DNA from: Escherichia phage BF17
Length of the DNA stretch: 64,000 nucleotides
Strand: one strand, 5' to 3'
Sequence record: MW822008.1
Every line of letters starts with the position of its first letter. The first letter of the stretch is position 1. A program made the position numbers and the translations under genes. Positions 9,137 to 63,770 of this stretch are shown piece by piece. The notes under the pieces are model-generated. The model saw nothing but the letters and a program-made list of their open reading frames with translations, had not been told where the DNA came from and did not search any database.

Positions 9137-9164
9137 GTATCTTAACAACAGAAGGTATATTGAA

Positions 9165-9404
9165 ATGGGTAAGTATTTTGTGAGTTATAGTTATAATGTA
9201 TCACGAAAGATTCCACGTGGTGACGGAATGGGATGGTCTTATGATGCATATACTTTAAATGAGTCATGTATCATCGAATTACAAGAAAAAGACCTTGACA
9301 TTTTAAAAATCAAACAATATATTCTTGATGTTGAATTGGCACATCGTACTGATACCTATCCAGATGTAAACAACATCAGCATCTTAGTACTAACCAAAGT
9401 ATAA
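9165..9404 (+). CDS. hypothetical protein
   Basis: ORF track 9135-9404 trimmed to ATG 9165 after GAAGG RBS. Confidence 0.55.
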   Translation: MGKYFVSYSYNVSRKIPRGDGMGWSYDAYTLNESCIIELQEKDLDILKIKQYILDVELAHRTDTYPDVNNISILVLTKV

Positions 9405-9482
9405 GATAAAAAGAACTTTACTAAATAATTCCACTGGAGATTAATATGTTTAAAGATGAACGTCCAGATTTGTAAAAAGTAC

Positions 9483-17083: not shown

Positions 17084-18241
17084 TTATGCGTTATAACCAA
17101 CAATGACTACAGTACAGCCAAATGGTTCAACAACTTTTAATACAACATTATCATCTGCATCGAGTTCAACTTCACTTAGAACAACATGATTGTCTTCAGC
17201 ATATACTTGAACTTGTGGGAGGATTTTACCATGTTCACTGACAGGAATGGACAGTGTGTACATAGAATCACCATCAACTACCCAATCACTATCGGTATAC
17301 GTGTTGTGATATGGAGTGGTGTGTAAGGTTTTACCAATAATACTCAATGAGATTGGAGCGTCATCAGTTTGGTACACAGTAATATTACCGCTAGGATCTA
17401 CAATGAGGTCTACTCCAATTTGGAATAAATCACCACTGTATGCTTGTAGAGCAAGATACTCACCACGCTCATGCACAGTAGCTGGTACAGTTGCCATGTA
17501 CATACCATCGGACGTGTACTCAAACTGAGATAGAAGTACTGAAGTAACGAAGTCAATATCTTCTCCGCTTTCTAGTATATCAAATTCAATAGTTTTGGTA
17601 TTATATATGTCAGAAGTGAGTATGATGGTTCCTTTACCGGATTGAGTAATTGGATCAACTGGAATACTAAAAACATCATCAATTATTTCAGTTGTGAAGT
17701 ACTCGGTTCCGTCAGGAAGTATAACGGTAATACGCATTCCAGTTGTATCAATGGCTGAACCTGCGTTGAATAGGCGACCACCTACCAAATCATCACCTAC
17801 GAACGTTGGGGACATAAGGATGTTGTCTATATCTCTATCTATAATCCCGCATTCAGGGGTGTACATATTATATAGTGTTTGTGAACTACCTAGAATTGTT
17901 TTGTGCAAAAGAAACTTATAAACAAACCCAGTAGGATCTGATTCAAGTTTAGCATCTGAGTATCCTCTTACGAAAAAAGAGTTCTTTCTTATTTCACTTA
18001 GGATTTGGTCATTAGTTTTGTTGTAGTTTAATTGATATCCTTGTATATCCTTTGTTGTAATTTGTACTTTACGATAAATTACATTACTTACAGGATCAAG
18101 TAAATCATATAATCTATGGCTTCTCTGACGATAGATTCGAACATTTTTGAGTTTAGTCCCATCGTTGAGAATTGCACCATCGACTACATATCCACATTCA
18201 CCGAACTTATATCGTCCAGCAGCAGCAATCGATCTTGACAT
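17084..18241 (-). CDS. hypothetical beta-rich protein (possible structural protein)
   Basis: 385-aa ORF on minus strand with GGAGGG RBS; lone minus-strand gene within the plus-strand block. Confidence 0.75.
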   Translation of the reverse strand: MSRSIAAAGRYKFGECGYVVDGAILNDGTKLKNVRIYRQRSHRLYDLLDPVSNVIYRKVQITTKDIQGYQLNYNKTNDQILSEIRKNSFFVRGYSDAKLESDPTGFVYKFLLHKTILGSSQTLYNMYTPECGIIDRDIDNILMSPTFVGDDLVGGRLFNAGSAIDTTGMRITVILPDGTEYFTTEIIDDVFSIPVDPITQSGKGTIILTSDIYNTKTIEFDILESGEDIDFVTSVLLSQFEYTSDGMYMATVPATVHERGEYLALQAYSGDLFQIGVDLIVDPSGNITVYQTDDAPISLSIIGKTLHTTPYHNTYTDSDWVVDGDSMYTLSIPVSEHGKILPQVQVYAEDNHVVLSEVELDADDNVVLKVVEPFGCTVVIVGYNA

Positions 18242-50288: not shown

Positions 50289-51413
50289 TTAATTATCTAA
50301 GCCACCAATTACACTGAACAGTGTGGTAACGTCTGAACTATTATCTATGTAAGTTCTTCTACCAACATAATATAGTTGTCCTTTTGCTTGAATAAAAGTT
50401 ACGGTCCCTGTATTGAATGTTATAATATCATTGTATGTAATGTCAGGTGGTAGTGCTGCTGATAACGCAGTAACTTTACTTAATGCAGCACTAGTACTAC
50501 CATTTATACCAGCAGCAATACTACCAGTACCATAGAACTTATTATCTTTACCAATGAATACGTTGGCTGATGCTTGTGTAGCTGATGTTATTGCCTTACC
50601 AATTTGGAATGCGGTTCCTATGGTGTATGGTGTGCTCCTGGCTGCGTCTATGCTTTGTGTATATCCATCCCCTAGCTGACCATTAACTTTGTCACCACAT
50701 GAGTATAAAGTACCATTGAGGCTGTATATGATCCCACGGTTAGAGAAGCTAACAGCTTCTGCATTAGTCCATACTGGAGCGGTGTATGAGTTTACACGAC
50801 TAGCAGTAGTTCCTAGTCCTAGTATACCATATGTGTTATCACCACATCCAAACCATTGTCCAGTACTGTTTTGATAGAACACTGAACGTTCTGTTGATTC
50901 CATGCGTACAGCATCCACAGCACCACTTTTAACGAACGAAGTGGATGAGGATGTAGTACCAGTACCCAATGCACCATAAGTGTTTGTACCAATCGCATAG
51001 ATTGATCCTAGTGGTGTCATCACACGTATACAGTTATATCCCAATTGAACTTTACATTCAAATAGGTTGTCCCATATTTCAGGAACAGCAGAAAATAAAT
51101 TTGTAATTTCGAACCATGATGTTGTCGAACCAATTAATCCTATACTGCTTTTGTTTCCTAAAATGAAAACAGTTTTGTCCTTCTTAATTATCCATGATGA
51201 TAGGAAACCTATCTCACAGCTATGAACATTTGATTCTATTTGGGTAATATAATACTTAACTGTGTTATCACCCATGAATGCCGCAGCACCGGATGCAAAA
51301 AGGTTTCCAGTTTGTTTATTTAAAATGTAGTTATTGTTTCCATATACACTAACATCATAAGAACTTTCTTGTTTTTCGTTCCCATAATCAAATAACAATA
51401 CGAAAGGTAACAT
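50289..51413 (-). CDS. RCC1-like repeat protein, MLPF-leader family member 1
   Basis: 374 aa; MLPFVLLFDYGN leader variant; G-x-N-x-x-G-Q-L-G-x-G repeats (GCGDNTYGILGLG, SCGDKVNGQLGDG); GGAG RBS. Confidence 0.8.
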   Translation of the reverse strand: MLPFVLLFDYGNEKQESSYDVSVYGNNNYILNKQTGNLFASGAAAFMGDNTVKYYITQIESNVHSCEIGFLSSWIIKKDKTVFILGNKSSIGLIGSTTSWFEITNLFSAVPEIWDNLFECKVQLGYNCIRVMTPLGSIYAIGTNTYGALGTGTTSSSTSFVKSGAVDAVRMESTERSVFYQNSTGQWFGCGDNTYGILGLGTTASRVNSYTAPVWTNAEAVSFSNRGIIYSLNGTLYSCGDKVNGQLGDGYTQSIDAARSTPYTIGTAFQIGKAITSATQASANVFIGKDNKFYGTGSIAAGINGSTSAALSKVTALSAALPPDITYNDIITFNTGTVTFIQAKGQLYYVGRRTYIDNSSDVTTLFSVIGGLDN

Positions 51414-51490
51414 GATAAAATCTCCTTGTGTTATACTTTATTTAATCATTTTATAATGTACAATTTTACAGCGATTTAATTGAGGTACTC

Positions 51491-52141
51491 ATGAATAAAA
51501 GAAGTAAGTTCTATCAAGAATATTTCACTAAACATAAACGATTCACAAAAAAATACTTTACATCATCCCACCGACCAGTTGCAAGTTACAAACGTCCTAA
51601 TACTAACTATCTTGCTGGTGGCAAGTTTAGTGCAAAGTTCGAATTACTTATGCGTGAAAAGAATATCAAGATGCATTACGCAGAGACGAGAAAAAACTCA
51701 TCAATTATTTGCTCTGATTTTCTTGAGTACGGTTGCTTAACTTATAAATTCAATGATGTATATTTGTATATTGATGTTGATTGTAACAGTACTCTTATGT
51801 TTGAGATTTCAATTCACCCAAATCACAACCGTTATATAAACATTAACTTGATTGATAAAGTACTGATTGGTATATCTAGTACTGATGGTGGTGGATTTGA
51901 ATTTATTGCTTCAAAATATGATGAAGATTTCGTACTTTACCCAGTACTTGATGATGTGAAAGATATTCTCAATTCATTAAAAGGAAGTCAATACAAATTA
52001 TCTGAAGAACAGCTATTTCAGTACTCACTTATTCATGATGATATCGAGATATACTTAGAGTGTGCGAGAATCTTGGAGTATCTTTATAATGAACTAACAA
52101 CAACTGGTAAAGTGACTGCATTCACATTATATAATATGTAA
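51491..52141 (+). CDS. hypothetical protein (EE-x-F-Q motif family)
   Basis: 216-aa plus-strand ORF embedded in the minus-strand array; SEEQLFQYSLI motif. Confidence 0.65.
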   Translation: MNKRSKFYQEYFTKHKRFTKKYFTSSHRPVASYKRPNTNYLAGGKFSAKFELLMREKNIKMHYAETRKNSSIICSDFLEYGCLTYKFNDVYLYIDVDCNSTLMFEISIHPNHNRYININLIDKVLIGISSTDGGGFEFIASKYDEDFVLYPVLDDVKDILNSLKGSQYKLSEEQLFQYSLIHDDIEIYLECARILEYLYNELTTTGKVTAFTLYNM

Positions 52142-52147
52142 AAGAAA

Positions 52148-52167
52148 AGCCAGTACATAGTACTGGC
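52148..52167. terminator. bidirectional terminator
   Basis: GCCAGTAC-ATA-GTACTGGC palindrome between convergent genes. Confidence 0.6.
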
Positions 52168-52173
52168 ATTATA

Positions 52174-53310
52174 TTAAACTGGTGGAGAATTATATGGCTC
52201 AAATTTATAAGTTGTCGTAGCAGTACCAGCAATGGCGTTGTTAGCTAGTATGTACATAGTCCTGTAGTCGATTACCACTACAGTAATACTACCACCAAAA
52301 GCATAGTCTGTTATGTTATTAGTGTTGAATGGTAAATTAGATGAACTGGTCCATGTATTAGCTGTTGTGCTATTTGTACCATTGGAATAACCTACACTAG
52401 ATGCACCAGTTGTCCATAAGTTTCCATCATTGAACAAGGAGACATGGTTAGTTGTATATGATTTATTAGGTATAGAACTATCAATTGGTGTATTCCAAAC
52501 TTTAGTAACCCATGTTGTAACTGCTGTATTATTAGTAACGCCATTACCTAATGAACCATTTATTGGTATACCTCTTATATAAGAAGTGTTAGTACTAGGG
52601 TCAACATATCCAAATGTATATGTATCAAATGCAAATTGAAAACAATCAGAACTCGGTAATGTGTACAGTAATGTATATGAAGACGTGTTTATTGATGAAT
52701 TTGTACCGTTCACACCTTGGTATAAAATACCACTAGCCAATATTTGATTATTATTTTTTGTTATAGTGTTCATTGATGGATATGTTTTCACATCACGCAC
52801 ATCATTAGTCACATATGTTTGTGTTGATAATGCAACGTTACTACCATTACCTATAACCCCTGTATTTGCACCACTCCCATAAAGTGAACCATCATTCAAA
52901 AGAACCATTGTAACATTACCATTTCCCGTAATTGTTTTAATATTACTAACATCCACCGCAGCAAATACAGTTGATGTTAAATCAGTGAAACGTGTATAAT
53001 GTGATGTTGTGCCATTGATTGGTGTCGCAAAACCAGAATACAAAATTCTATTTTCTTTGGTAATAAGGAATGTGCCAGTAACACCATTTGAATGGATATC
53101 AACAATATTATCGCCCATTAATACCCAATCACTTACGAATGTTGTTGTACCAGTACCCAACCCATATGTCGTATTGTATCCACGTCCATACACTCTACCA
53201 TCACTGAGTAATGTTACCACACATTGACCACCACCACCAAGTATAACTTTTTGTATAGTACTCTTTACTTTTATATTCCCGTACTTAACCATTCTTGCAA
53301 AAGGTAACAT
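52174..53310 (-). CDS. RCC1-like repeat protein, MLPF-leader family member 2
   Basis: 378 aa; MLPFARMVKYGN; co-transcribed with member 3 (14-nt gap with AAGGAG). Confidence 0.85.
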   Translation of the reverse strand: MLPFARMVKYGNIKVKSTIQKVILGGGGQCVVTLLSDGRVYGRGYNTTYGLGTGTTTFVSDWVLMGDNIVDIHSNGVTGTFLITKENRILYSGFATPINGTTSHYTRFTDLTSTVFAAVDVSNIKTITGNGNVTMVLLNDGSLYGSGANTGVIGNGSNVALSTQTYVTNDVRDVKTYPSMNTITKNNNQILASGILYQGVNGTNSSINTSSYTLLYTLPSSDCFQFAFDTYTFGYVDPSTNTSYIRGIPINGSLGNGVTNNTAVTTWVTKVWNTPIDSSIPNKSYTTNHVSLFNDGNLWTTGASSVGYSNGTNSTTANTWTSSSNLPFNTNNITDYAFGGSITVVVIDYRTMYILANNAIAGTATTTYKFEPYNSPPV

Positions 53311-53324
53311 TCTTTTTCTCCTTG

Positions 53325-54473
53325 TTATATTGATGGCATATCCAACACATATGAGTTGCTAGTGATTGATGAATATGTAGAATTTAAACCTGTACTATAA
53401 ACATAATCACCTGCCCATAAGAATGTTCTATCCAATGTTGTATGTATTTCAATATCATCATATGATGATAATGATATTTGTGCTAGTGTATATGTAGTAG
53501 CATCAATGTTTGAACCAATACCCAAAGTACCATTGTATTGTGATTGGGAGTTTTGACCAGTTGCATATATACCAGATTTGGTTATTAAATGCTGATTATA
53601 CATTGACGTACCTTTAAACAATTTAATTAAATTAGAGTTAGGTGTTGTTATTTGTGCAGGAGCAAGTATTGTTGTTGTAGTGCCACCATCACCTAATTGT
53701 CCATATCGTTGGTAACCACCAGCGTATACCTGTTTAACTCCAGTAGTAGTTTCTATAATAAAGAATGAACCATAGCCAGTAGTATTAAAGTCTATAATTT
53801 TATTTGTACTCAAACCAACATTATATCTAGTAAATGTTGTTGCATTAGCAGAACCACCAGCATTCCCACCGACCATTTGACCACTATAATAAAATGCACC
53901 AGTACTGTCAGTATAAGCCATACAGTTCTCACTACCATAGATTTTTACTGGTGTACTGGGGAAACTAGAGGTTATATTCACACATGTATTATATTTTGCA
54001 GTAGTTCCAGTAATTTCACCATTGTTGTTTTGACCAATTGCCCAAACTGTGTCATCGGAACGTATAGCCATTGAGCTAAAAAACGATGACACAAATTGTT
54101 TAATAAAGGAACCAGGGAGGGAAGTAAGCATACTATTGATTTGTGCACTCACATTGGTCCATGTATTCACAACTGAATTGACACCTGCCGCTGCACCTGA
54201 ACCTGAACTCCACCATGATTCATCATTCTTTTTAATCAATGTACCGTTAGCAGAACAATAAACATCAGCAACTGAACTATTAACTAATATCCATTCCCTC
54301 GCTGTTGTGGTATTACCAGTACCTAGCTGTCCTGCTGCATTACTACCCTTAGCATATAAATCACCACTCTGCGTTAAAAGCATAGCATGTTGGTATCCAG
54401 TAGATAATTTCTTTATTTTTGGTAATGCTGGTGCTTCATTTCCATAATCAAACATTCTAACAAAAGGTAACAT
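53325..54473 (-). CDS. RCC1-like repeat protein, MLPF-leader family member 3
   Basis: 382 aa; MLPFVRMFDYGN; AKGSNAAGQLGTGNTT, AGGYQRYGQLGDGGTT. Confidence 0.85.
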   Translation of the reverse strand: MLPFVRMFDYGNEAPALPKIKKLSTGYQHAMLLTQSGDLYAKGSNAAGQLGTGNTTTAREWILVNSSVADVYCSANGTLIKKNDESWWSSGSGAAAGVNSVVNTWTNVSAQINSMLTSLPGSFIKQFVSSFFSSMAIRSDDTVWAIGQNNNGEITGTTAKYNTCVNITSSFPSTPVKIYGSENCMAYTDSTGAFYYSGQMVGGNAGGSANATTFTRYNVGLSTNKIIDFNTTGYGSFFIIETTTGVKQVYAGGYQRYGQLGDGGTTTTILAPAQITTPNSNLIKLFKGTSMYNQHLITKSGIYATGQNSQSQYNGTLGIGSNIDATTYTLAQISLSSYDDIEIHTTLDRTFLWAGDYVYSTGLNSTYSSITSNSYVLDMPSI

Positions 54474-54543
54474 AATTCCCTCCTTTATTCATTATACTAT
54501 ATTTAATCAAAAAGAAAAGCCAGCACTCTGTACTGGCATAATA
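54474..54543 (-). terminator. array cassette: terminator hairpin + TATAAT + AAGGAGG
   Basis: Minus strand reads GCCAGTACAGAGTGCTGGC-TTTTCTTTTT...TATAGTATAATGAATAAAGGAGG-ATG. Confidence 0.65.
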
Positions 54544-55695
54544 TTATTTCCACGGTAGAAGTGAATCTGGAACTCTTGTTGGTACATTGGTTGTTGACAC
54601 ACCTGTGAGATTTGGAACACCACATGTATATAAATTATCAGCTTCATCCACTAGCATTGTATAAGAATATCCCCTACAAAAACTACCAATTGCACGGCCT
54701 TCTAATGCAGAAAGATTCATTTCAGTAAATGTTGTTATATTTGCCACGTTTGAACCAACACCACATTGACCATTTGTATTCAGACCACATAAAAATAACT
54801 TATTATTATTTTTAATTGTACATGATGGCCCTGCAAGGTTTGTGCCAAGTTCACCCACCAACTCTATTTCACCTTGGAATGATAAATTTGGAATTAATGC
54901 ACTCATAGGAACTGGTGTTGTATTTCCAGTACCAGCTTGTCCCCTAACGTTAGTTGAAGCCACTTTGACGGTCCCATCATTAAGAAATATATAAGAAGTT
55001 TCAATTGTATTGACTGCTTTAGTCGCAGTAATAATAGAAGATTCTTGAGTAAATGTTAGTACGTTTTGTGCTGATGTTCCTGATACAAATGTATTACCTG
55101 CGTACCAATATGTGCCATCATTGAGCACTAATCCAGTACTGCGTATTGCACACCCAGCACTTCGAACATTTTCAATAGTACTATAAGTGAATTGTGTAAC
55201 GCTTGCAGTTGAACCATTTCCAAATACACCACCTATTCCCGCTCCACAGTAGAACCACTTTCCATTTTTTAAAAATACACGTAAACAACCAGATATAACA
55301 ATATTATCAATATCATCTGCAATAACACCGAAGTCAGCAAAGTTCTGTGTTACTTCAACCCAAACACCGTTGGTATCTGCTGATAATATTGGAATTACAG
55401 ACCTTGAACCAGTGTACCAAATAGTTCCATTTTTCTTAATAGCAATTGTACCTTGAACACCACCCCAATAACGTTCCACATTTGTATTGACATTAGTCCA
55501 TGAAGTTGATGTGTTAGTTGAGCCATATGCACCATTACCGCTTTGTCCATATGTTGCTGTACCATACCAATATAGATCGCCTGTAGTGTGTAAATAAAAT
55601 TTGGAATCAGCCGAGCATTGTAATCTATTTTTAAATATAGGTTTTGGCTCTGGTGCTACATTCCCGAACTTAACCATTCTTGCAAAAGGTAACAT
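54544..55695 (-). CDS. RCC1-like repeat protein, MLPF-leader family member 4
   Basis: ORF track extends to 55761 through the RBS; trimmed to MLPFARMVKFGN start. Confidence 0.85.
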   Translation of the reverse strand: MLPFARMVKFGNVAPEPKPIFKNRLQCSADSKFYLHTTGDLYWYGTATYGQSGNGAYGSTNTSTSWTNVNTNVERYWGGVQGTIAIKKNGTIWYTGSRSVIPILSADTNGVWVEVTQNFADFGVIADDIDNIVISGCLRVFLKNGKWFYCGAGIGGVFGNGSTASVTQFTYSTIENVRSAGCAIRSTGLVLNDGTYWYAGNTFVSGTSAQNVLTFTQESSIITATKAVNTIETSYIFLNDGTVKVASTNVRGQAGTGNTTPVPMSALIPNLSFQGEIELVGELGTNLAGPSCTIKNNNKLFLCGLNTNGQCGVGSNVANITTFTEMNLSALEGRAIGSFCRGYSYTMLVDEADNLYTCGVPNLTGVSTTNVPTRVPDSLLPWK

Positions 55696-55772
55696 ATTTC
55701 CTCCTTTATTCATTATACTATATTTAATATAAAAAGAAAAGCCAGTATCAAGTACTGGCATAGTATTAAGGT
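55696..55772 (-). terminator. array cassette: terminator hairpin + TATAAT + AAGGAGG
   Basis: GCCAGTACTTGATACTGGC hairpin family. Confidence 0.65.
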
Positions 55773-56903
55773 TTAAATATTTTTATAATTAATTTCTACA
55801 TAGTTACGTTGTGTTCCAGTATATCCTGGAACATTACCTAAATTTCCATTACCTGCACCAAACAGACGTTCTCCGACTGCAAAATATGTCCCATAGAAAC
55901 AACCATCAAACACAGGAACATCATTATAATTTGATATGTAATTATCCATTGAATCCATTCTAGTGTATGCAGTCAGAGTTACATTTGTACCTATACCATA
56001 TGCACCATAAGGGTTAGTACCAGCAACATAATACCCAGTGGGTGTACATATTACTGGTGAATTTGCCCCTGATCTCGTGTGGATAAATCTAAATGTACCT
56101 TCAGGTACTGGTGCTTCTTTACTGAATAATGTTGTAGCTACTACTGGGTAATCAATACCATAACTATTACCACTCAACCACGTTTTACCATCACTATCTT
56201 TGAATAATGAACAGGATTGTGTGCATCCGAACAGATTCAAATTGGTTACATTTGGAAATTTACTAATTTGTGTATATACCAGAACTGTGGTTGCGGTAGC
56301 ACTACCAAGTTGTCCACGACCATTATCACCCGCACTGTACATGTACCCATCGGTCTTTAATATTATACTAGCGTTTCCTAAAATATCAAAATCAACAACA
56401 TCCGTTTGTGTTAATGTAGCTATAGGATAACGAAAATTCACTGCCTCACCAGTACCAAATTGACAATTGGTGTTTACCCCACATCCATATAAGTTGCCGT
56501 TTTGCATTAATATAAACAAACCTGTTGTCATTTTAATTTTCTTAATATTAAGAATATCTATATCTTGGAATATGTGTGTTACATTTACAAATGTGGTTGA
56601 GTTAACAGCACTTGAACCATAATAAGAACCGTTCCCGCTACCAAAGAATTCATCGCCTTTTCTGTACATTGCACATAGACTGCCACCCCATACATCATCA
56701 ACTCCAGTGTCAATTTGAATAACTGAAGTAACACTAGTTGTTGCACCAGTGCCAAGTTCACCACCTGAATTGAATCCAAAACCATACAAATCTCCACTTT
56801 CGGTGAGCACCAAAACACTGTTAGTGGTTGTGCATGAAATCTTTTTGATATTATTAGATGGTCTTTTATTTCCGTACTTAACCATTCTTGCAAAAGGTAA
56901 CAT
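55773..56903 (-). CDS. RCC1-like repeat protein, MLPF-leader family member 5
   Basis: Trimmed to MLPFARMVKYGN; GFGFNSGGELGTGATT, SAGDNGRGQLGSATATT. Confidence 0.85.
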   Translation of the reverse strand: MLPFARMVKYGNKRPSNNIKKISCTTTNSVLVLTESGDLYGFGFNSGGELGTGATTSVTSVIQIDTGVDDVWGGSLCAMYRKGDEFFGSGNGSYYGSSAVNSTTFVNVTHIFQDIDILNIKKIKMTTGLFILMQNGNLYGCGVNTNCQFGTGEAVNFRYPIATLTQTDVVDFDILGNASIILKTDGYMYSAGDNGRGQLGSATATTVLVYTQISKFPNVTNLNLFGCTQSCSLFKDSDGKTWLSGNSYGIDYPVVATTLFSKEAPVPEGTFRFIHTRSGANSPVICTPTGYYVAGTNPYGAYGIGTNVTLTAYTRMDSMDNYISNYNDVPVFDGCFYGTYFAVGERLFGAGNGNLGNVPGYTGTQRNYVEINYKNI

Positions 56904-56980
56904 AATTCCTCCTTTATTCATTATACTATATTTAATCAAAAATAAAAGCCAGTATCAAGTACTGGCATAGTTTTATAGTA
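56904..56980 (-). terminator. array cassette: terminator hairpin + TATAAT + AAGGAGG
   Basis: Conserved cassette copy. Confidence 0.65.
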
Positions 56981-58090
56981 TCATTTCGGCATTGTAATTG
57001 CAGACCATGAGTTCGTGGTAATAGGACCTGGCACATACAAAAAAGAACCACAAGCATAAATTTGATTATTACCATCAAATACTATACTAAAATGTGCACA
57101 TGTGTATAATGCTGATTTTTCTGGGTTGTAATTATCTAAAGTTAGTGTATTGGTGAATCTACTCAAACCACCACCAGAACCATTTCTACCAAATTCACCA
57201 GTACTATATATCTTTCCTTCGGTTGTTGCGTACATATTAACATATGAAGTTGCACTTGATTTTGATATTTTATGTATCTTACTATCAATAGTAGTGGAGT
57301 TAAATGCAAATGGATATACTTGTGTGTTCGTTGTAATACCGTTACCAAGTTGACCAACATACTGCCAACCTGCGTTGTATATATTGCTGGCTGAATAAGC
57401 AAGAGTACCAGTACTGTTACCACCAAACAGTTTAACACTGGTTAACCTGCTTACTAGTGTAGTATACTGTCCTGGACTTACGCCAAGTGAACCATACCCA
57501 CTACTCCCACAACCGAGAAGTTCACCATTTGATGTTAATATTAATGTGTTATTCTGTGTACCCAATATATCAAGGACTGTATTAGCTCCGGTATTAATAA
57601 CTGAAACAAAAGTACTCTGAGCCGTGGAATACCCACCACCGAGTGAATAGTTACCATTCATGCCTCTACCATAAACAATCGAACCACTAGCATCAACGTA
57701 GTGCATTGTATCTGCACCAATTGATATCATTTTAATATTAGATATATGTGGAAATGAAGAAGTAACATTCAAACCACCCAACGGAATCGTAGTATTTCCT
57801 GTGCCTAATTGTGTGGTAACTCCATGCATTATGAATTCTTCACCCTTGATATAAAGAATATTGTACGCCCCAGCCCATGCATCAGTAACACCTTCTGAAA
57901 TTAATATCCAAGTATTTCTTGTTGCTGTATTTGTAACGTTTAACTGAAAATACGAATTAACCCCACAACCATAAAGTGAGCCATCGCCATAGAGGACGTA
58001 CAAATTATCAAGACCGCACAGTACTTTCTTTATCTTTGGATCTTCAGGTGCAATATTCCCGTAATCAAACATTCTAACAAAAGGTAACAT
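56981..58090 (-). CDS. RCC1-like repeat protein, MLPF-leader family member 6
   Basis: Trimmed to MLPFVRMFDYGN; AGWQYVGQLGNGITT. Confidence 0.85.
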   Translation of the reverse strand: MLPFVRMFDYGNIAPEDPKIKKVLCGLDNLYVLYGDGSLYGCGVNSYFQLNVTNTATRNTWILISEGVTDAWAGAYNILYIKGEEFIMHGVTTQLGTGNTTIPLGGLNVTSSFPHISNIKMISIGADTMHYVDASGSIVYGRGMNGNYSLGGGYSTAQSTFVSVINTGANTVLDILGTQNNTLILTSNGELLGCGSSGYGSLGVSPGQYTTLVSRLTSVKLFGGNSTGTLAYSASNIYNAGWQYVGQLGNGITTNTQVYPFAFNSTTIDSKIHKISKSSATSYVNMYATTEGKIYSTGEFGRNGSGGGLSRFTNTLTLDNYNPEKSALYTCAHFSIVFDGNNQIYACGSFLYVPGPITTNSWSAITMPK

Positions 58091-58161
58091 ATTTCCTCCT
58101 TTATTCATTATACTATATTTAATACAAAAAGAAAAGCCAGTATCAAGTACTGGCCTATATC
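58091..58161 (-). terminator. array cassette: terminator hairpin + TATAAT + AAGGAGG
   Basis: Conserved cassette copy. Confidence 0.65.
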
Positions 58162-58899
58162 TTAGACTGAATTGTCAGGATAATATCTCCCACGTCCCCA
58201 TATTATTCGCACAGCACCACCACCAGCAGCCGTATAAGAAGAATTATCCCATATACTACCACCACCACCATACCTCTTACCAGCACCACCACTACCAGCA
58301 CCACCATTATATGAACCATCGTAGCTACCACCAATACCATTAGCACCTTGAACAATGATACCAGTACCACCACCCGTACCAATGAACGAGGTATTATAGA
58401 ATGCACCACCACCACCGCCCCCGCCAGCACCATTTTCACCAGTGATTGCATTTCCGTTACCACCTTTACCTGTGTAGCCACCAGCACCACCACCAATGAC
58501 TGCACCACCACTTAAACCAGTGTTGCCACCATTACCACCACCATCATTAATAGCGTTAGCAGCTTTTCCACCTAGTCCACCAACCGTATATGCACCAGTG
58601 AAGCTAACACATAGTTTTTCAGTTCCACGATATAAACCGTTTTCAACTGCTGTAGTAGTGTTGGGATGTGTAAGAGAAACACTTAAGTACTCACCACCAG
58701 AAACCGGAATATTATTACGCCACGATAAGCCGCCACCAGCACCACGTTGACCACCCGGCGAAATAACACATACTGATATTTCGGTAACGCCAGCAGGAAC
58801 TGTAAATTGTGTTGTTCCTATTGTCGTGATTAATTGTTCACCATGTGGCTTATATTCAATTTTATTCCCGAACTTAACCATTCTTGCAAAAGGTAACAT
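58162..58899 (-). CDS. glycine-rich protein with MLPF leader, family member 7
   Basis: 245 aa; MLPFARMVKFGN then FTVPAGVTEISVCVISPGGQRGAGGG and long GGxGG tracts; no RCC1-like motifs. Confidence 0.8.
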   Translation of the reverse strand: MLPFARMVKFGNKIEYKPHGEQLITTIGTTQFTVPAGVTEISVCVISPGGQRGAGGGLSWRNNIPVSGGEYLSVSLTHPNTTTAVENGLYRGTEKLCVSFTGAYTVGGLGGKAANAINDGGGNGGNTGLSGGAVIGGGAGGYTGKGGNGNAITGENGAGGGGGGGAFYNTSFIGTGGGTGIIVQGANGIGGSYDGSYNGGAGSGGAGKRYGGGGSIWDNSSYTAAGGGAVRIIWGRGRYYPDNSV

Positions 58900-58970
58900 A
58901 ATTCCCTCCTTTATTCATTATACTATATTTAACCAAAAAGAAAAGCCAGTATCAAGTACTGGCTTTTACA
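58900..58970 (-). terminator. array cassette: terminator hairpin + TATAAT + AAGGAGG
   Basis: Conserved cassette copy. Confidence 0.65.
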
Positions 58971-60161
58971 TTACAATTGTCTAGGTGTATCCAGTACATA
59001 TCTATTTGTACTAGGACCACCATCATCATAAGTTCCGGTTGAATATATATTTTTCATATCAGCAGTTAGGAAAGTACGTAACGACCCTCGATATATTTTT
59101 ATTTTATCATACATAGAATATGTTATTTCTGACGGCAATGGACATGCAGTAAATTTACCAATGGTAACATTAGAACCAACACCCAATGAACCAGCATAAC
59201 TACTCGCATTTAAACCTGTTGCATATACACCAGAACTCGTAACTAGTATACTAGATTGTGCTGGGTATCCAGTATGAATTGAATACAAAGTACCGGGTGG
59301 TAAGGTTGAACTATTATTTCCTAATACTGCTCGTGCTGTACTAGACGTAGTGTTATTACCCCATGCCCCATTATTGGCGTTCCCACCCACTAGGAACTGA
59401 CGTGCTCCTGTACTTGGATTCTCCACTAAAGCACTGACTGCACCAATTGTACATACAACATATTGTAATGTTTTTGTATATGTTGTACTTGGCTGATATA
59501 AAGTATATTGATTGTATGGAGTCCATGTATCAGTAGTACTTATACCTGATGTACTACCACCAATATATAAATTATTTTGTGTATCATAAAACATTACACA
59601 GCTATTTGTTGACTGTATTCGTGCAATATCAACATTAGGCGTGACAGCTTTTACAAATGATCCATCTGTTATTTGTTGAGTACTACCAGTACCATCAGCG
59701 AATTGTCTAGCCCCACTCCAACCAGTACTCCATATTGTATTATTATCCATTAAGAAAGTAAACCAAGTAGTACCTGCATACATCTGTTTAATTGAAGTAC
59801 CTGAACTTTGTGTGTACAAATTTTCAATATATTGGTTATAACTTAAAAATGATGTAGTACTAGTTTCTAAACCAATATGACCACCATATCCACAATAAAA
59901 ATAATTTAAGTCCTTATCTTGAACTAACAAAGTTCCTTGTGTCATCCAGCAATCTTTGACATTTTCTCTAATTAATGTCCACGACCTTACTGCATTATTA
60001 TTTCCGCGACCGAACTTCCCATAACTATTATTTCCTCGTGCGTATAGTTGACCGTCAGTATAAAGTACAACCACATCAGTATCAGTTGGTATTATTTTCT
60101 TAATTAGAAGAGGTTCAGGTGTGATATTCCCATAATCAAACAATCTAACAAAAGGTAACAT
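58971..60161 (-). CDS. RCC1-like repeat protein, MLPF-leader family member 8
   Basis: 396 aa; MLPFVRLFDYGN; ARGNNSYGKFGRGNNN. Confidence 0.85.
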   Translation of the reverse strand: MLPFVRLFDYGNITPEPLLIKKIIPTDTDVVVLYTDGQLYARGNNSYGKFGRGNNNAVRSWTLIRENVKDCWMTQGTLLVQDKDLNYFYCGYGGHIGLETSTTSFLSYNQYIENLYTQSSGTSIKQMYAGTTWFTFLMDNNTIWSTGWSGARQFADGTGSTQQITDGSFVKAVTPNVDIARIQSTNSCVMFYDTQNNLYIGGSTSGISTTDTWTPYNQYTLYQPSTTYTKTLQYVVCTIGAVSALVENPSTGARQFLVGGNANNGAWGNNTTSSTARAVLGNNSSTLPPGTLYSIHTGYPAQSSILVTSSGVYATGLNASSYAGSLGVGSNVTIGKFTACPLPSEITYSMYDKIKIYRGSLRTFLTADMKNIYSTGTYDDGGPSTNRYVLDTPRQL

Positions 60162-60231
60162 ATTTCCCTCCTTTATTCATTATACTATATTTAACCAAAA
60201 AGAAAAGCCAGTACTTGATACTGGCGTAATG
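60162..60231 (-). terminator. array cassette: terminator hairpin + TATAAT + AAGGAGG
   Basis: Conserved cassette copy. Confidence 0.65.
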
Positions 60232-61374
60232 TCAATAAGCTTCCCACGGTAAGGGTGTCTTCCTAAATCCATACCTGGTTGTGGTCGCACCATCACCAGC
60301 AATGTATCGACCGATACCACATTGGTATAACTCTGTACTACTACATATAGCACCACCAATAGTACCACTACTCCACAGAATTATATTAGAATATGTTATT
60401 GGTAAATCACTACATTTAGTATATACACCAACGGTAGCAGCCCCACTAATACCACCAAACATACTTCGGTTAGCACCAGTATAATATATACCATCTGGAC
60501 TCATAAATGCAGAGGTGTAAGTTGTACTACAATCCACTGGACTTCTTATAGTATTAAGATCGCCTGGGTATGTCCTGGCACCAAAGGTGTATACATTACC
60601 ATCAGTTGTAATACCATTACCTAACTGCCCACTGTTTTGTCCACCACATGTAAGCAACAATGCAGAACCAGAAACAATTGCAGTAGCATTATACGAAGTA
60701 CCCATCGCAATAGAAGCACCAGACAATAGTTTTGGAGTAACAATAGCTGTTGTATTACCCTGGCCTAATTCACCATTGATATTTCGTCCCCATGCGTATA
60801 TAGAAGTTGTATCCAATCGACATAGTACTGAACCATAACTAAACGTATATCGCATGTCAATTACCGCATTAGGCAAATTAACCTTAGTTGCAACACTAAT
60901 AACACCACCAGTAACACCACTGTTTGCGTTCATGTTACGACCATATGCATATAAAGAACCATCTGAAGTTTTAATATGCATCATACCATCTGTACAATAC
61001 AATGCATCTATACTATCCACTGCAACCGGACCCATACTGGTAGTTATATCGGTCCACCCAAGCGTGGTAGTACTGGAAATTAAGTTATTTCCGGCGTATA
61101 GTATTCTATTATTATTAGTAACTACAACTGTATATCTGGCAGTAACACCAATTAATCGAACATCAGTATATATCTTAGACCACGCACCTAATGAATTGGT
61201 GTTTGCATCCAAAAAGCCCAACTGCCCATCTGTATTGTATCCAATACCCCATACATCACCTGCACTGTCCAATAACACTTCATGTGAAAATCCAATCTTA
61301 AAATCTTTTATTGTAGGAACTACCGGAACTGGTGCAATATTCCCGTACTTAACCATTCTAGCAAAAGGTAACAT
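60232..61374 (-). CDS. RCC1-like repeat protein, MLPF-leader family member 9
   Basis: 380 aa; MLPFARMVKYGN; GIGYNTDGQLGFLD, AWGRNINGELGQGNTT, CGGQNSGQLGNGITT. Confidence 0.85.
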   Translation of the reverse strand: MLPFARMVKYGNIAPVPVVPTIKDFKIGFSHEVLLDSAGDVWGIGYNTDGQLGFLDANTNSLGAWSKIYTDVRLIGVTARYTVVVTNNNRILYAGNNLISSTTTLGWTDITTSMGPVAVDSIDALYCTDGMMHIKTSDGSLYAYGRNMNANSGVTGGVISVATKVNLPNAVIDMRYTFSYGSVLCRLDTTSIYAWGRNINGELGQGNTTAIVTPKLLSGASIAMGTSYNATAIVSGSALLLTCGGQNSGQLGNGITTDGNVYTFGARTYPGDLNTIRSPVDCSTTYTSAFMSPDGIYYTGANRSMFGGISGAATVGVYTKCSDLPITYSNIILWSSGTIGGAICSSTELYQCGIGRYIAGDGATTTRYGFRKTPLPWEAY

Positions 61375-61445
61375 AATTCCCTCCTTTATTCATTATACTA
61401 TATTTAATACAAATAAGAATGCCAGTATCAAGTACTGGCATTATG
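61375..61445 (-). terminator. array cassette: terminator hairpin + TATAAT + AAGGAGG
   Basis: Conserved cassette copy (weaker U-tract). Confidence 0.6.
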
Positions 61446-62555
61446 TTATTTTGGTAAATCAATTTTAGTAAAGACTGCAACATCCTCGCTTGCTCCAGGA
61501 ATGGCGTAATACGATCCAGTACTATACACATCTCCATCTTTGGTTAATATTGATGTCAAACCATCACTAAAAAGAACATCCCTAATTGCACTAACTTCAA
61601 CGGGTAATTGTAAATTTGTAGCACTATATATAGCACCAGTTTGAGAATTGTTTAATCCCAAACCACGGTTCGCCCCAACACCCTTCTGATATGTACTAGT
61701 AATTACCATTTGTGTCGCAGTATTTAAGGCAGGTGAATTCGTCATAAACAACGGAGAACTATTCGGCAAAGTACTTACAGGAACTGCACGGAATGTAGTC
61801 GTACCTGAACTAAGAAAGTTTGGAGTTTGACCACATACGAAATATGATGTGCCATTATAGTAATTTAATGCATTACCACCAATTGCTGCATCGATTACAC
61901 CAGAACTACGTAATCCCCAAGTGTTAACTTGTGTTTGGCTCCCCGTGCCATGCTGCCCACTGCTATTCCATCCAGAACTATATAGCTTATTATCTAATGT
62001 AAGATACATACTATCATTCGCATTGGTCATTACTTTACGAACGTTCGTAGCACATTGAGTTAATGTGTAAATTGATGATGAACCAATACCTAAAGAACCA
62101 CGATATCCATTATCTCCTGCACCATAGAGTACTGAATTAGTGCTAAGTACAAATATTAAACCATTTGTACATACAATATTAGCAATTTCACTTACTGGTA
62201 TTGCATTTGTGAACCAACTGGTTCTATCAACTAATACAGTACTGTAAGAAGTAGTTGTGGAAGATGTGAACCAGTACGTTTGACCTGATGACCATATCGT
62301 ATTATCATTTTTAATAATAACAAGTGTACGATCACCCACGAAAAAATTAGAAACATCTGTACTTACTAATATCCATGAGGATACTGTGTTGGTATTTCCA
62401 TTTCCAGATTCACCACCTTGATTTCTACCTATGTAATATAAATCATGTGAATCTGTCAATAAGAATTGACCCTGTGTAGAAGCACCAACTTTAATTATAT
62501 TTTTAGGACCAGGTGTGATATTCCCATAATCAAACAATCTAACAAAAGGTAACAT
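61446..62555 (-). CDS. RCC1-like repeat protein, MLPF-leader family member 10
   Basis: 369 aa; MLPFVRLFDYGN; co-transcribed with member 11 (10-nt gap with AAGGAG). Confidence 0.85.
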   Translation of the reverse strand: MLPFVRLFDYGNITPGPKNIIKVGASTQGQFLLTDSHDLYYIGRNQGGESGNGNTNTVSSWILVSTDVSNFFVGDRTLVIIKNDNTIWSSGQTYWFTSSTTTSYSTVLVDRTSWFTNAIPVSEIANIVCTNGLIFVLSTNSVLYGAGDNGYRGSLGIGSSSIYTLTQCATNVRKVMTNANDSMYLTLDNKLYSSGWNSSGQHGTGSQTQVNTWGLRSSGVIDAAIGGNALNYYNGTSYFVCGQTPNFLSSGTTTFRAVPVSTLPNSSPLFMTNSPALNTATQMVITSTYQKGVGANRGLGLNNSQTGAIYSATNLQLPVEVSAIRDVLFSDGLTSILTKDGDVYSTGSYYAIPGASEDVAVFTKIDLPK

Positions 62556-62565
62556 ATTTCTCTCC

Positions 62566-63696
62566 TTAATTTAGTAATGCCCCTGGCAAATCCACTTTGA
62601 CGAATTGTGCATATGCTGAGGAATTTTGATCAAAGTTTGGTCCCAATCCATAAAATGAGCTAATGCCGTCTTCATTTGTGTATATGATATAAACGTTCTT
62701 TACATCATTTCCGCATATAAATCGAATGTCTTTCGTTTGTGTTCCCGCTGGAACATTACGAAGGTTCACAACGCCATTACTTGCATTGTTATCAGCCGAC
62801 GCAATTGGTAATTGATTTTGACCATATTGACCACGCATATTTTTTGCATCTAAACCAAACACAGTATCTGATACCGCACCAACTTTCAAAAATGAACCAA
62901 AACTATTATTGAATGACTTTGGAAATGTACCACTATAAACACTTCTCCCATCTGATAATACCGCTGAACTGAATTTCCCGCTATTCGATATGGCAAATTC
63001 ATTGTAAGGAAGTGTACCCATTTTGGTATATACAGAATATGAATTAGTGGAAGTATTATCAATAATCTTATTACCATTATATCCAATACCATACTGGTAT
63101 CCGTCTGCATCTTGAACTATACACAAAGGACCACTTGGGGTTTGTGTCAACGAAACAACACGTTCAACTTGTATATCACCAAATGTATTTCTTCGCCATG
63201 TTCTATCTATTATAGTACTAGTATTACCCAAAGATAATGCCACACTATATAATAGATTGTTTTCAGTAAAAATGGCAACATAATATGCGTGGTTAATAAC
63301 TTGCTTCATCCCAGCATCAATAACTTCCTGTGGAATATGATCAGTAACATCCAACCAATCAAGGTTAGATGATGCAATATCTGGAGTACTGAATTTGTCA
63401 AATCTAGTTGAGCCACAAACTAGCACTCTATCATCATTTGTCAAAGCCACTGTGCTAGTCTGCATATTAGAACTGAATGATTTAACATTACTAATGTTAG
63501 ACTTGTACCAACCCTTATCAGCAGCACCCACCGTGAATCCGGTTCCCATTGATCCACTTGTACTTGTACCATAAGCCCACATCTCACCACTATATGTTAG
63601 TGCCATACAGTGGCTTCCATTTGCTTGGAAATCCTTTATACCAGTGGGAGCAACCACTGTATTCCCATAATCAAACATTCTAACAAAAGGTAACAT
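62566..63696 (-). CDS. RCC1-like repeat protein, MLPF-leader family member 11
   Basis: Trimmed to MLPFVRMFDYGN; AYGTSTSGSMGTGFT. Confidence 0.85.
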   Translation of the reverse strand: MLPFVRMFDYGNTVVAPTGIKDFQANGSHCMALTYSGEMWAYGTSTSGSMGTGFTVGAADKGWYKSNISNVKSFSSNMQTSTVALTNDDRVLVCGSTRFDKFSTPDIASSNLDWLDVTDHIPQEVIDAGMKQVINHAYYVAIFTENNLLYSVALSLGNTSTIIDRTWRRNTFGDIQVERVVSLTQTPSGPLCIVQDADGYQYGIGYNGNKIIDNTSTNSYSVYTKMGTLPYNEFAISNSGKFSSAVLSDGRSVYSGTFPKSFNNSFGSFLKVGAVSDTVFGLDAKNMRGQYGQNQLPIASADNNASNGVVNLRNVPAGTQTKDIRFICGNDVKNVYIIYTNEDGISSFYGLGPNFDQNSSAYAQFVKVDLPGALLN

Positions 63697-63770
63697 AACT
63701 AAAATCTCCATATAATAATTATAATGTATTTACAAAAAAATACCAGTACGTATTTCAGTACTGGTATCAT
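63697..63770 (-). terminator. variant array cassette: terminator hairpin + TTATAAT + GGAG
   Basis: Minus strand ATACCAGTACTGAAATACGTACTGGTAT + TTTTTTT then TTATAAT and GGAG before ATG. Confidence 0.6.

Follow-up and report, generated by a model that had tools for sequence, protein, structure and literature searches.

In the 64,000-nucleotide stretch of Escherichia phage BF17 considered here (sequence record MW822008.1; the whole stretch is called the window), eleven minus-strand genes form an array whose products begin with nearly the same peptide of 12 residues. The window belongs to an Asteriusvirus-type (121Q-like) jumbo coliphage. Ten of the array members match RCC1 models of Pfam, and the remaining one, a glycine-rich protein, is the subject of this work together with the shared leader. 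A preliminary description of this DNA had claimed that this member joins the leader of its neighbours to a glycine-rich body without RCC1 motifs, and this arrangement is indeed seen at 58162-58899, with the following features:

58162..58899, minus strand: glycine-rich array member, 245 amino acids plus stop, orthologue of 121Q gene 243
58864..58899, minus strand: leader of 12 codons, MLPFARMVKFGN (ATGTTACCTTTTGCAAGAATGGTTAAGTTCGGGAAT), modelled as disordered
58165..58845, minus strand: body, residues about 19-245, with a predicted TNF-like beta-sandwich and polyglycine (glycine-rich) domain and the C-terminal motif GAVRIIWG..R.YP

The glycine-rich open reading frame (ORF) starts with MLPFARMVKFGN, ends with ...GGGAVRIIWGRGRYYPDNSV and is glycine-rich throughout to its end. 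The surrounding region (57000-60200) shares 97.5% of its nucleotides with CMSTMSU, 95.7% with fEgEco12 and about 91% with 121Q, and the ORF itself is kept at 94-99.6% across 17 related coliphages. In a large protein collection, 186 homologues were found at E<=1e-3, most of them free-standing proteins of 240-280 amino acids which have invariant motifs in common, including the C-terminal GAVRIIWG..R.YP. Another frame of the same gene contains an ORF of 102 amino acids (58203..58511, minus strand), which is the one annotated in phAPEC6 as gp004; the intact glycine-rich gene is unannotated in that phage (contig L007, 9117-9869, with the gp004-type ORF at 9158-9463). Due to this mis-annotation, the published virion mass spectrometry (MS) of phAPEC6 was unable to detect the glycine-rich product. 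A further orthologue, on Logan contig L070 (SRR12907740), shows a 37-nucleotide deletion (1230-1262) between two GGGAAT direct repeats, which takes out the start codon and the entire leader; the same copy is internally deleted (206 amino acids) and is probably a decaying, leaderless one.

Within the window, the array leaders follow the consensus MLPF[AV][RL][ML][VF][KD][YF]GN, which a six-frame scan located in 11 ORFs, all on the minus strand within 50289-63711. The glycine-rich ORF also agrees with a wider definition, M-[LI]-P-F-x-[RIP]-hydrophobic-x-x-[YF]-[GA]-N immediately preceded by a Shine-Dalgarno site. In a BLASTP comparison with the neighbour at 54544-55695, residues 1-12 were identical (12/12) and nothing else was significant, and the 36 leader nucleotides of the two genes are identical as well. 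This identity far exceeds chance. The RCC1 bodies themselves are 17-29% identical, and the leader holds six of the ten invariant columns in the alignment of the ten paralogues. An AlphaFold2 model of the glycine-rich protein (40 homologues as input) reached a predicted local distance difference test score (pLDDT) of 92 and a predicted template modelling score (pTM) of 0.88, with residues 1-7 below pLDDT 50 and the first strand beginning at residue 20. Likewise, the model of an RCC1-like neighbour (ten window paralogues as input, pTM 0.83) features residues 1-10 below pLDDT 50 and a first strand from residue 20. Judged by these models, the leader lies outside both folds and is disordered in both body types, and the earlier claim that it is not part of the propeller fold agrees with the low N-terminal scores as well as with the divergence of the bodies.

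The modelled body, in which a TNF-like beta-sandwich and a lattice of glycine-rich strands interleave, belongs, as far as the model goes, to the glycine-rich domain fold class. A structure search of BFVD with this model returned viral "glycine-rich domain-containing proteins", and among solved structures the bodies come closest to proteins of tail fibres, tail brushes and spikes. A domain search at sequence level, which the preliminary description had suggested, led to a divided result: the window protein has no Pfam match at E<=0.1, and the assignment is reached via distant phmmer homologues such as P0038, which matches PF21722 (Gly_rich_2) at E 1e-7, with many others carrying PF21722 in a precomputed table. 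RCC1 repeats or a seven-bladed propeller are not found in the glycine-rich protein, which lacks any RCC1 match in Pfam and adopts a different fold in the model.

The tail fibre gp24 of cyanophage Pam3 (PDB 7YPX) and TFP_Y of the Klebsiella phage SCNJ1-Y have the fold modelled for the window protein. This fold is used for receptor binding in Pam3 gp24 (PMC9608196) as well as in TFP_Y, where host-range mutations fall in the glycine-rich domain (PMC12671077). The sequence identity between Pam3 gp24 and the window protein amounts to 17%, and sequence and profile searches of the PDB with the latter gave no significant match. Pam3 gp24 docks to the baseplate via an N-terminal, alpha-helical trimerising shaft, and a dedicated chaperone gene adjoins its own (PMC9608196). 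The window protein, in contrast, has no helix before the TNF-like domain, its residues 1-18 being a low-confidence coil, and no Tfa-like chaperone gene is adjacent, as both neighbours are RCC1-like and divided from it by terminator-promoter junctions. Lacking the helical shaft and the adjacent chaperone gene, the glycine-rich protein is not a Pam3-type fibre. Also close are the "tail wing brush" gp33 and the tail spike gp29 of mycobacteriophage Bxb1 (PDB 9D93), neither of which is known to be related in sequence to the leader; the paper on phi92 describes no glycine-rich protein.

The occurrence of the leader on other bodies was assessed by a degenerate DNA pattern run over IMG/VR and metagenomes. 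The matches in IMG/VR were confined to jumbo-phage contigs (121Q, CBB, GAP32 and relatives) apart from one short chance ORF, and the metagenomes added about 45 long ORFs with a Shine-Dalgarno site besides a dozen short chance matches. In the complete genome of 121Q (348.5 kb, six frames), the leader is confined to the array. The 85 unique leader proteins form 10 BLAST clusters, whose bodies comprise Kelch propellers (E down to 4e-32), lectin folds of the Laminin_G_3 (LamG) type, the phrog_6011 family of "virion structural proteins", several unassigned families and one RCC1-Kelch fusion. The preliminary claim that the leader is attached to at least two unrelated domain types is thus borne out by RCC1, Kelch, LamG and glycine-rich bodies. 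In phage CBB, the leader is present on CBB_536 and 537 and on all of CBB_548-554, and it also occurs on two isolated genes, CBB_144 (glycine-rich, between nrdD and nrdG) and CBB_247 (LamG); these 11 CBB genes are the pattern matches plus the annotated arrays rather than the outcome of a whole-genome scan. The fusion, a 667-residue protein on contig L056 (7528-9531), has a single MLPF leader, behind which an RCC1-like propeller precedes a Kelch propeller; two array-type bodies seem to have been united in it. Besides, glycine-rich genes with other short N-terminal leaders were noticed on an rV5-like contig (L002, 8134-10744) and a small metagenomic contig (L004, 284-1876). These leaders, M-x-E-[LM]-[LM]... 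and M[LF]P[FL]PI[IM]..., are common to adjacent LamG-like and small genes, and the trio on L002 lies directly upstream of spanins and terminase. The theme of a shared leader may extend beyond jumbo phages.

Outside the Asteriusvirus lineage, the codons of the leader vary and its residues are largely kept. On metagenomic contig L017, MIPFARIVKYGN is the start of a glycine-rich gene (58% identical) as well as of the RCC1-like gene next to it; the two leaders differ by five synonymous and no non-synonymous changes, and no promoter cassette lies in between. In CBB, GAP32 and other jumbo-phage contigs, the residues are likewise kept through CCA/CCT/CCG, AGA/AGG/CGT, TAC/TAT and GGA/GGT/GGG, with synonymous variation at P3, F4, R6, Y10, G11 and N12. 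Among the 85 unique ORFs, M1, P3, F4 and N12 are invariant and L2, R6, Y10 and G11 nearly so, with positions 5 (A, V, P, S, G or T) and 9 varying. As far as comparison of sequences can tell, this shows that the leader residues are under protein-level selection outside Asteriusvirus.

The fate of the leader proteins can be followed in published virion proteomes. MS of CBB virions listed 55 of 554 ORFs (PMC5259590), and 9 of the 11 leader proteins are among these detections (hypergeometric P = 2e-8), which shows a strong enrichment in virions. The glycine-rich homologue CBB_144 was represented by 5 peptides and 34% coverage, and CBB_536 and CBB_549 were covered to 41% and 51%, respectively (PMC5259590). 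The preliminary description had held that its reading would fall if the leader occurred on non-array genes without a common fate; the isolated CBB_144 carries the leader and was detected in virions like the array products. In addition, the RCC1-like proteins gp003, 005, 006, 007, 009, 010, 549 and 551 are listed in the virion MS of phAPEC6 (PMC7247149), and the CBB paper (PMC5259590) states that MS also detected GAP32 gp001, an RCC1-like protein with the leader MLPFSRIIQYGN. Six of the MS-detected structural proteins of CBB have no counterpart in GAP32, and all six are leader proteins; the authors had named this class of GAP32-lacking structural proteins as candidates for the tail whiskers (PMC5259590). 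Unusual hairy fibres on tail or capsid were described for CBB (PMC5259590), phAPEC6 (PMC7247149) and fEgEco12.

The raw peptide table of the CBB virion further contains LFEYANVIIPPNYK (CBB_536) and LLQYGNK (CBB_553), each preceded by Arg. Both peptides imply that leader residues 7-12 persist in the virion proteins and that no cleavage takes place there. A signal peptide of the Sec, Tat or lipoprotein type was rejected by inspection, since MLPFARMVKFGNKIEYKPHGEQ has no hydrophobic core, AxA site, lipobox or twin arginine. On the whole, the view of the preliminary description that the leader is a functional signal for targeting, assembly or secretion is supported.

The layout of the array suggests how the leader might be spread. 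The relevant features, all in the window, are:

50289..63696, minus strand: whole leader array, ten RCC1-like genes and the glycine-rich gene
50289-51413, 52174-53310, 53325-54473, 54544-55695 and 55773-56903, minus strand: RCC1-like array genes
56981-58090, 58971-60161, 60232-61374, 61446-62555 and 62566-63696, minus strand: further RCC1-like array genes
58971..60161, minus strand: upstream neighbour of the glycine-rich gene, RCC1-like, leader MLPFVRLFDYGN
56981..58090, minus strand: downstream neighbour, RCC1-like, leader MLPFVRMFDYGN; true start 58090, with an upstream ATG at 58108 within the cassette
58905..58932, minus strand: array-specific cassette of 28 nucleotides, TTAAATATAGTATAATGAATAAAGGAGG, with a TATAAT-like element (58917-58922) and Shine-Dalgarno site (58905-58912)
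54479-54506, 55700-55727, 56908-56935, 58095-58122, 60167-60194 and 61380-61407: six more exact copies of the cassette
58941..58967, minus strand: hairpin resembling a terminator, AAAAGCCAGTACTTGATACTGGCTTTT plus T-run, which belongs to the upstream gene and to the repeated junction
58134..58156, minus strand: terminator-like hairpin downstream of the glycine-rich gene
58861..58972, minus strand: junction repeat of about 110 bp, comprising terminator, promoter-like element, ribosome-binding site (RBS) and the first 13 codons

Most gene boundaries within the array carry the junction repeat. Seven of the 11 genes are preceded by a near-identical unit, in which a hairpin (GCCAGTACTTGATACTGGC plus T-run) is followed by the cassette TTAAATATAGTATAATGAATAAAGGAGG and the ATG, and the remaining four (starts 51413, 53310, 62555 and 63696) have retained the leader behind different upstream DNA. 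The seven exact copies of the 28-mer in the window compare with none expected, and in 121Q the cassette is confined to the array. Behind genes, 11 terminator-like hairpins were found against 3.6 expected. Together with the repeated junction units, these hairpins make each array gene look like a transcription unit of its own. A scan for sigma-70 promoters gave sites no commoner than in shuffled sequences and none at the cassette, which resembles the late motif of CBB, ATAAATA, only approximately.

Several further observations concern the gene calls of the array and its surroundings. The cassette ATGAATAAAGGAGG offers an in-frame upstream start (58091-58108, 55696-55761 and 56904-56939), by which mechanical ORF calls gain MNKGG(N) or more; the Met of MLPF is the real start, because the Shine-Dalgarno site falls inside the called N-terminal extension. 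An opposite-strand gene lies within the array (51491-52141, plus strand; 216 amino acids, phrog_34359, 121Q gene 233), its function being unknown. Far outside, a lone minus-strand gene without MLPF leader (17084-18241) stands among small plus-strand genes. It matches phrog_10468 ("virion structural protein") and corresponds to 121Q gene 155, annotated as an Ig-domain structural protein.

Two leader alleles are interleaved in the window array, MLPFARMVK[YF]GN in five genes and MLPFV[RL][ML]FDYGN in six, and the 121Q array features almost only the former. Orthologous bodies of the window and 121Q differ in their leader allele, e.g., MLPFVRLFDYGN-ITPGPKNIIKVGAST against MLPFARMVKYGN-IVPGPKNIIKVGAST. 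Moreover, phage Ecwhy_1 carries another gene in place of the glycine-rich one, and its homology with the window stops inside the junction repeat at 58861-58972. The reassortment of alleles, the swapping of bodies and the attachment of the leader to many bodies characterize it as a module which moves independently of the body.

Taking these results together, we favor, with moderate confidence, the interpretation of the leader as an uncleaved, portable tag for virion incorporation (docking) on small adhesin-type heads. The tag would have the form M-L-P-F-x-R-hydrophobic-hydrophobic-x-Y-G-N and be flexible and uncleaved at positions 6-13, and Rak2-like jumbo phages (Asteriusvirus, CBB, GAP32 and relatives) would put it on many unrelated ligand-binding bodies. 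It would mark these bodies for incorporation by docking to a common acceptor protein, which may sit on the "hairy" fibres or decorations of tail and capsid and thus give swappable binding heads. In a beta-strand, the even positions of the leader (L2, F4, R6, hydrophobic 8 and Y10) would all point to the same side, a pattern that would suit strand addition to such an acceptor. The glycine-rich protein would accordingly represent a small adhesin-type head in which 12 residues replace the N-terminal docking shaft of classical fibres. At DNA level, the tag would travel as the 3' end of the ~110-bp junction of terminator hairpin, promoter-like element, RBS and 13 codons, and this repeat would supply dedicated expression as well as recombination sites. 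Recombination at the junction would shuffle bodies, reassort leader alleles and keep the leader DNA uniform within an array. That the tag itself causes incorporation and acts by docking, where the acceptor is located and that the bodies bind ligands of the host surface are the inferred parts of this proposal. A bolder version can be put forward only tentatively: the leader might be a self-sufficient, uncleaved "plug" onto a dedicated acceptor on whiskers or capsid fibres, the RCC1, Kelch, LamG and glycine-rich arrays a recombining library of interchangeable host-binding heads on a single scaffold, amounting to modular display in nature, and the RCC1-like "DNA-condensation" proteins in reality adhesins.

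Several points weigh against the docking interpretation. CBB_550 and CBB_554 carry the leader and were not detected in the virion MS of CBB, and each phAPEC6 detection comprises only 1-5 peptides, in a list that probably includes contaminants too (PMC7247149). In the record of 121Q, the RCC1-like genes have no structural label, and the glycine-rich protein of the Asteriusvirus lineage is covered by no virion proteome, that of phAPEC6 being affected by the mis-annotation. The enrichment in virions could instead arise if a set of structural genes were expressed late under common regulation. Between the glycine-rich orthologues of the window and 121Q (124425-125162), 6 synonymous and 14 non-synonymous changes were counted, and the resulting ratio of non-synonymous to synonymous substitution rates (dN/dS) of 0.79 for the body comes from only 20 differences, which are too few to inform. 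A value of about 0.8 would fit a fast-evolving binding surface, with numbers too small for a conclusion. Finally, the synonymous sites of the leader are near-frozen in the 23 Asteriusvirus leaders of window and 121Q (TTA 22/23, CCT 22/23, AGA 22/22, AAG 15/15), and no such restriction is seen in the Pro codons slightly further downstream. Such frozen codons point to homogenization by recombination or to a constraint on the RNA, so that the window alone cannot separate protein-level from DNA-level constraint.

The same observation is an argument for a reading in which the 36 nucleotides are kept merely as a regulatory or recombination junction, spread by gene conversion, with a functionless peptide. 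The seven exact cassettes and the mosaic breakpoints inside the junction would also be expected from it. Nevertheless, this reading is quite improbable, considering that the leader persists on the four members with other upstream DNA and on isolated CBB genes, that its residues outlast synonymous changes in L017, CBB, GAP32 and metagenomes, and that position 5 is free at protein level and M1, P3, F4 and N12 are invariant in the 85 ORFs. Somewhat more credible, although still unlikely, is a targeting to the prohead core in the manner of the capsid targeting sequence (CTS) of T4, by which the proteins would be packaged in the head, possibly in the inner body, with ejection into the host as a further possibility. 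The leader resembles the T4 CTS in length and N-terminal position, the phages encode a prohead protease like gp21 and a scaffold like gp22 of T4, and, as in a gp21 site, positions 7-9 read hydrophobic-x-E in roughly half of the non-Asteriusvirus leaders. In addition, phAPEC6 has an inner body, and the RCC1-like proteins were suggested as candidates for it in the phAPEC6 study; MS of whole virions does not tell inside from outside. On the other hand, the CBB peptide LFEYANVIIPPNYK spans the putative E9-Y10 site and is uncleaved there, position 9 can be K, D, Q, N or E, with only K or D among the leaders of the window, and the bodies are lectin or adhesin folds close to tail fibre, brush and spike proteins rather than DNA-binding or enzyme cargo. 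The variable position 9 and the intact CBB peptides rule out a T4-like cleavage motif as a general feature of the leader.

A recognition tag for a chaperone or protease system of the phage (e.g., ClpS-, ClpA- or ClpP-like), serving folding, quality control or timed degradation, is very improbable. It would be in line with the ClpS-like adaptor and the ClpA-like and ClpP-like proteins encoded by 121Q, with the N-terminus M-L-P-F, which is rich in N-degron-type residues, and with the need of glycine-rich fibre heads such as Pam3 gp24 for chaperones (PMC9608196). However, the tagged proteins are stable enough to be detected in virions with 34-51% coverage. Furthermore, Met1 is not expected to be removed before Leu, so that no N-degron would be exposed. 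In 121Q, ClpS-like, ClpP-like, HslV-like and ClpA-like proteins are the products of genes 48, 464, 473, 475 and 581. Practically negligible is the idea that the glycine-rich ORF is an artefact of a GGN-rich region in the wrong frame, a concern already raised in the preliminary description, or that the leader merely forms the opening strand of every domain. The wrong-frame concern holds instead for the ORF at 58203..58511. The region is indeed GGN-rich with overlapping ORFs in other frames, yet conservation in 17 phages, the 186 homologues, the confident model (pLDDT 92) with its clear structural match and the MS detection of the CBB homologue prove the ORF genuine, and the pLDDT below 50 in both models refutes the leader as part of a fold.

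The docking interpretation has consequences for annotation, particle biology and application. The leader sequence, or a description of it, was not found in the searchable literature; a comparative review of jumbo phages leaves RCC1 or Kelch arrays unmentioned, and the papers on Sharanji and fEgEco12 are silent on these genes. The RCC1 arrays of 121Q-like phages could be re-annotated, together with the "structural proteins" of CBB and GAP32 (Kelch, LamG or unknown), as one functional class sharing a 12-residue tag, and the phAPEC6 annotation of the glycine-rich gene needs correction. As the papers on CBB and phAPEC6 left the whisker genes open, the leader set offers a concrete list of candidates. 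Should the tag prove sufficient to bring a protein into the virion, few known incorporation signals would be shorter, and it could serve for cargo display on jumbo phages. Moreover, with regulation and tag coupled in one junction, a single recombination event would let a phage both acquire a foreign binding domain and assign it to the particle.

Three further known systems are comparable. The CTS of T4 is an N-terminal peptide of about 10 residues on the internal proteins IPI, IPII and IPIII, which derive from polymorphic IP loci in T-even phages; it decides whether they enter the particle and is removed by the prohead protease after hydrophobic-x-E, and its cargo lies inside the head. The window leader is likewise a short N-terminal peptide common to unrelated virion proteins from a variable locus. 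It differs by the persistence of residues 7-12 in virion proteins, by the absence of a conserved Glu at position 9 and by adhesin-like bodies. Regarding the DNA, the closest analogue are the PeSL (promoter-early stem-loop) elements, mobile regulatory cassettes of T4-type phages reportedly described by Arbiol et al. in 2010. In both cases, near-identical units of terminator stem-loop and promoter flank variable ORFs, and recombination breakpoints fall in the unit. Unlike PeSL, however, the window repeat takes in the first 13 codons of the gene, by which a protein tag is shuffled with the regulatory unit, and its promoter-like element is not a full sigma-70 promoter and resembles the late motif of CBB only loosely. 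The N-terminal anchors of phage tailspikes, fibres and adhesins (the CBA120 or G7C tailspikes and gp38 of S16/T2) are folded domains of roughly 50-150 residues. They share with the array proteins the principle of a conserved N-terminal attachment part combined with exchangeable receptor-binding parts, several per phage. The candidate anchor described here is instead a linear peptide of 12 residues, which is attached to four or more fold classes and occurs about ten times in each genome. The leader therefore follows the principles of both the CTS and the anchors of exchangeable receptor-binding proteins, yet lacks defining features of both.

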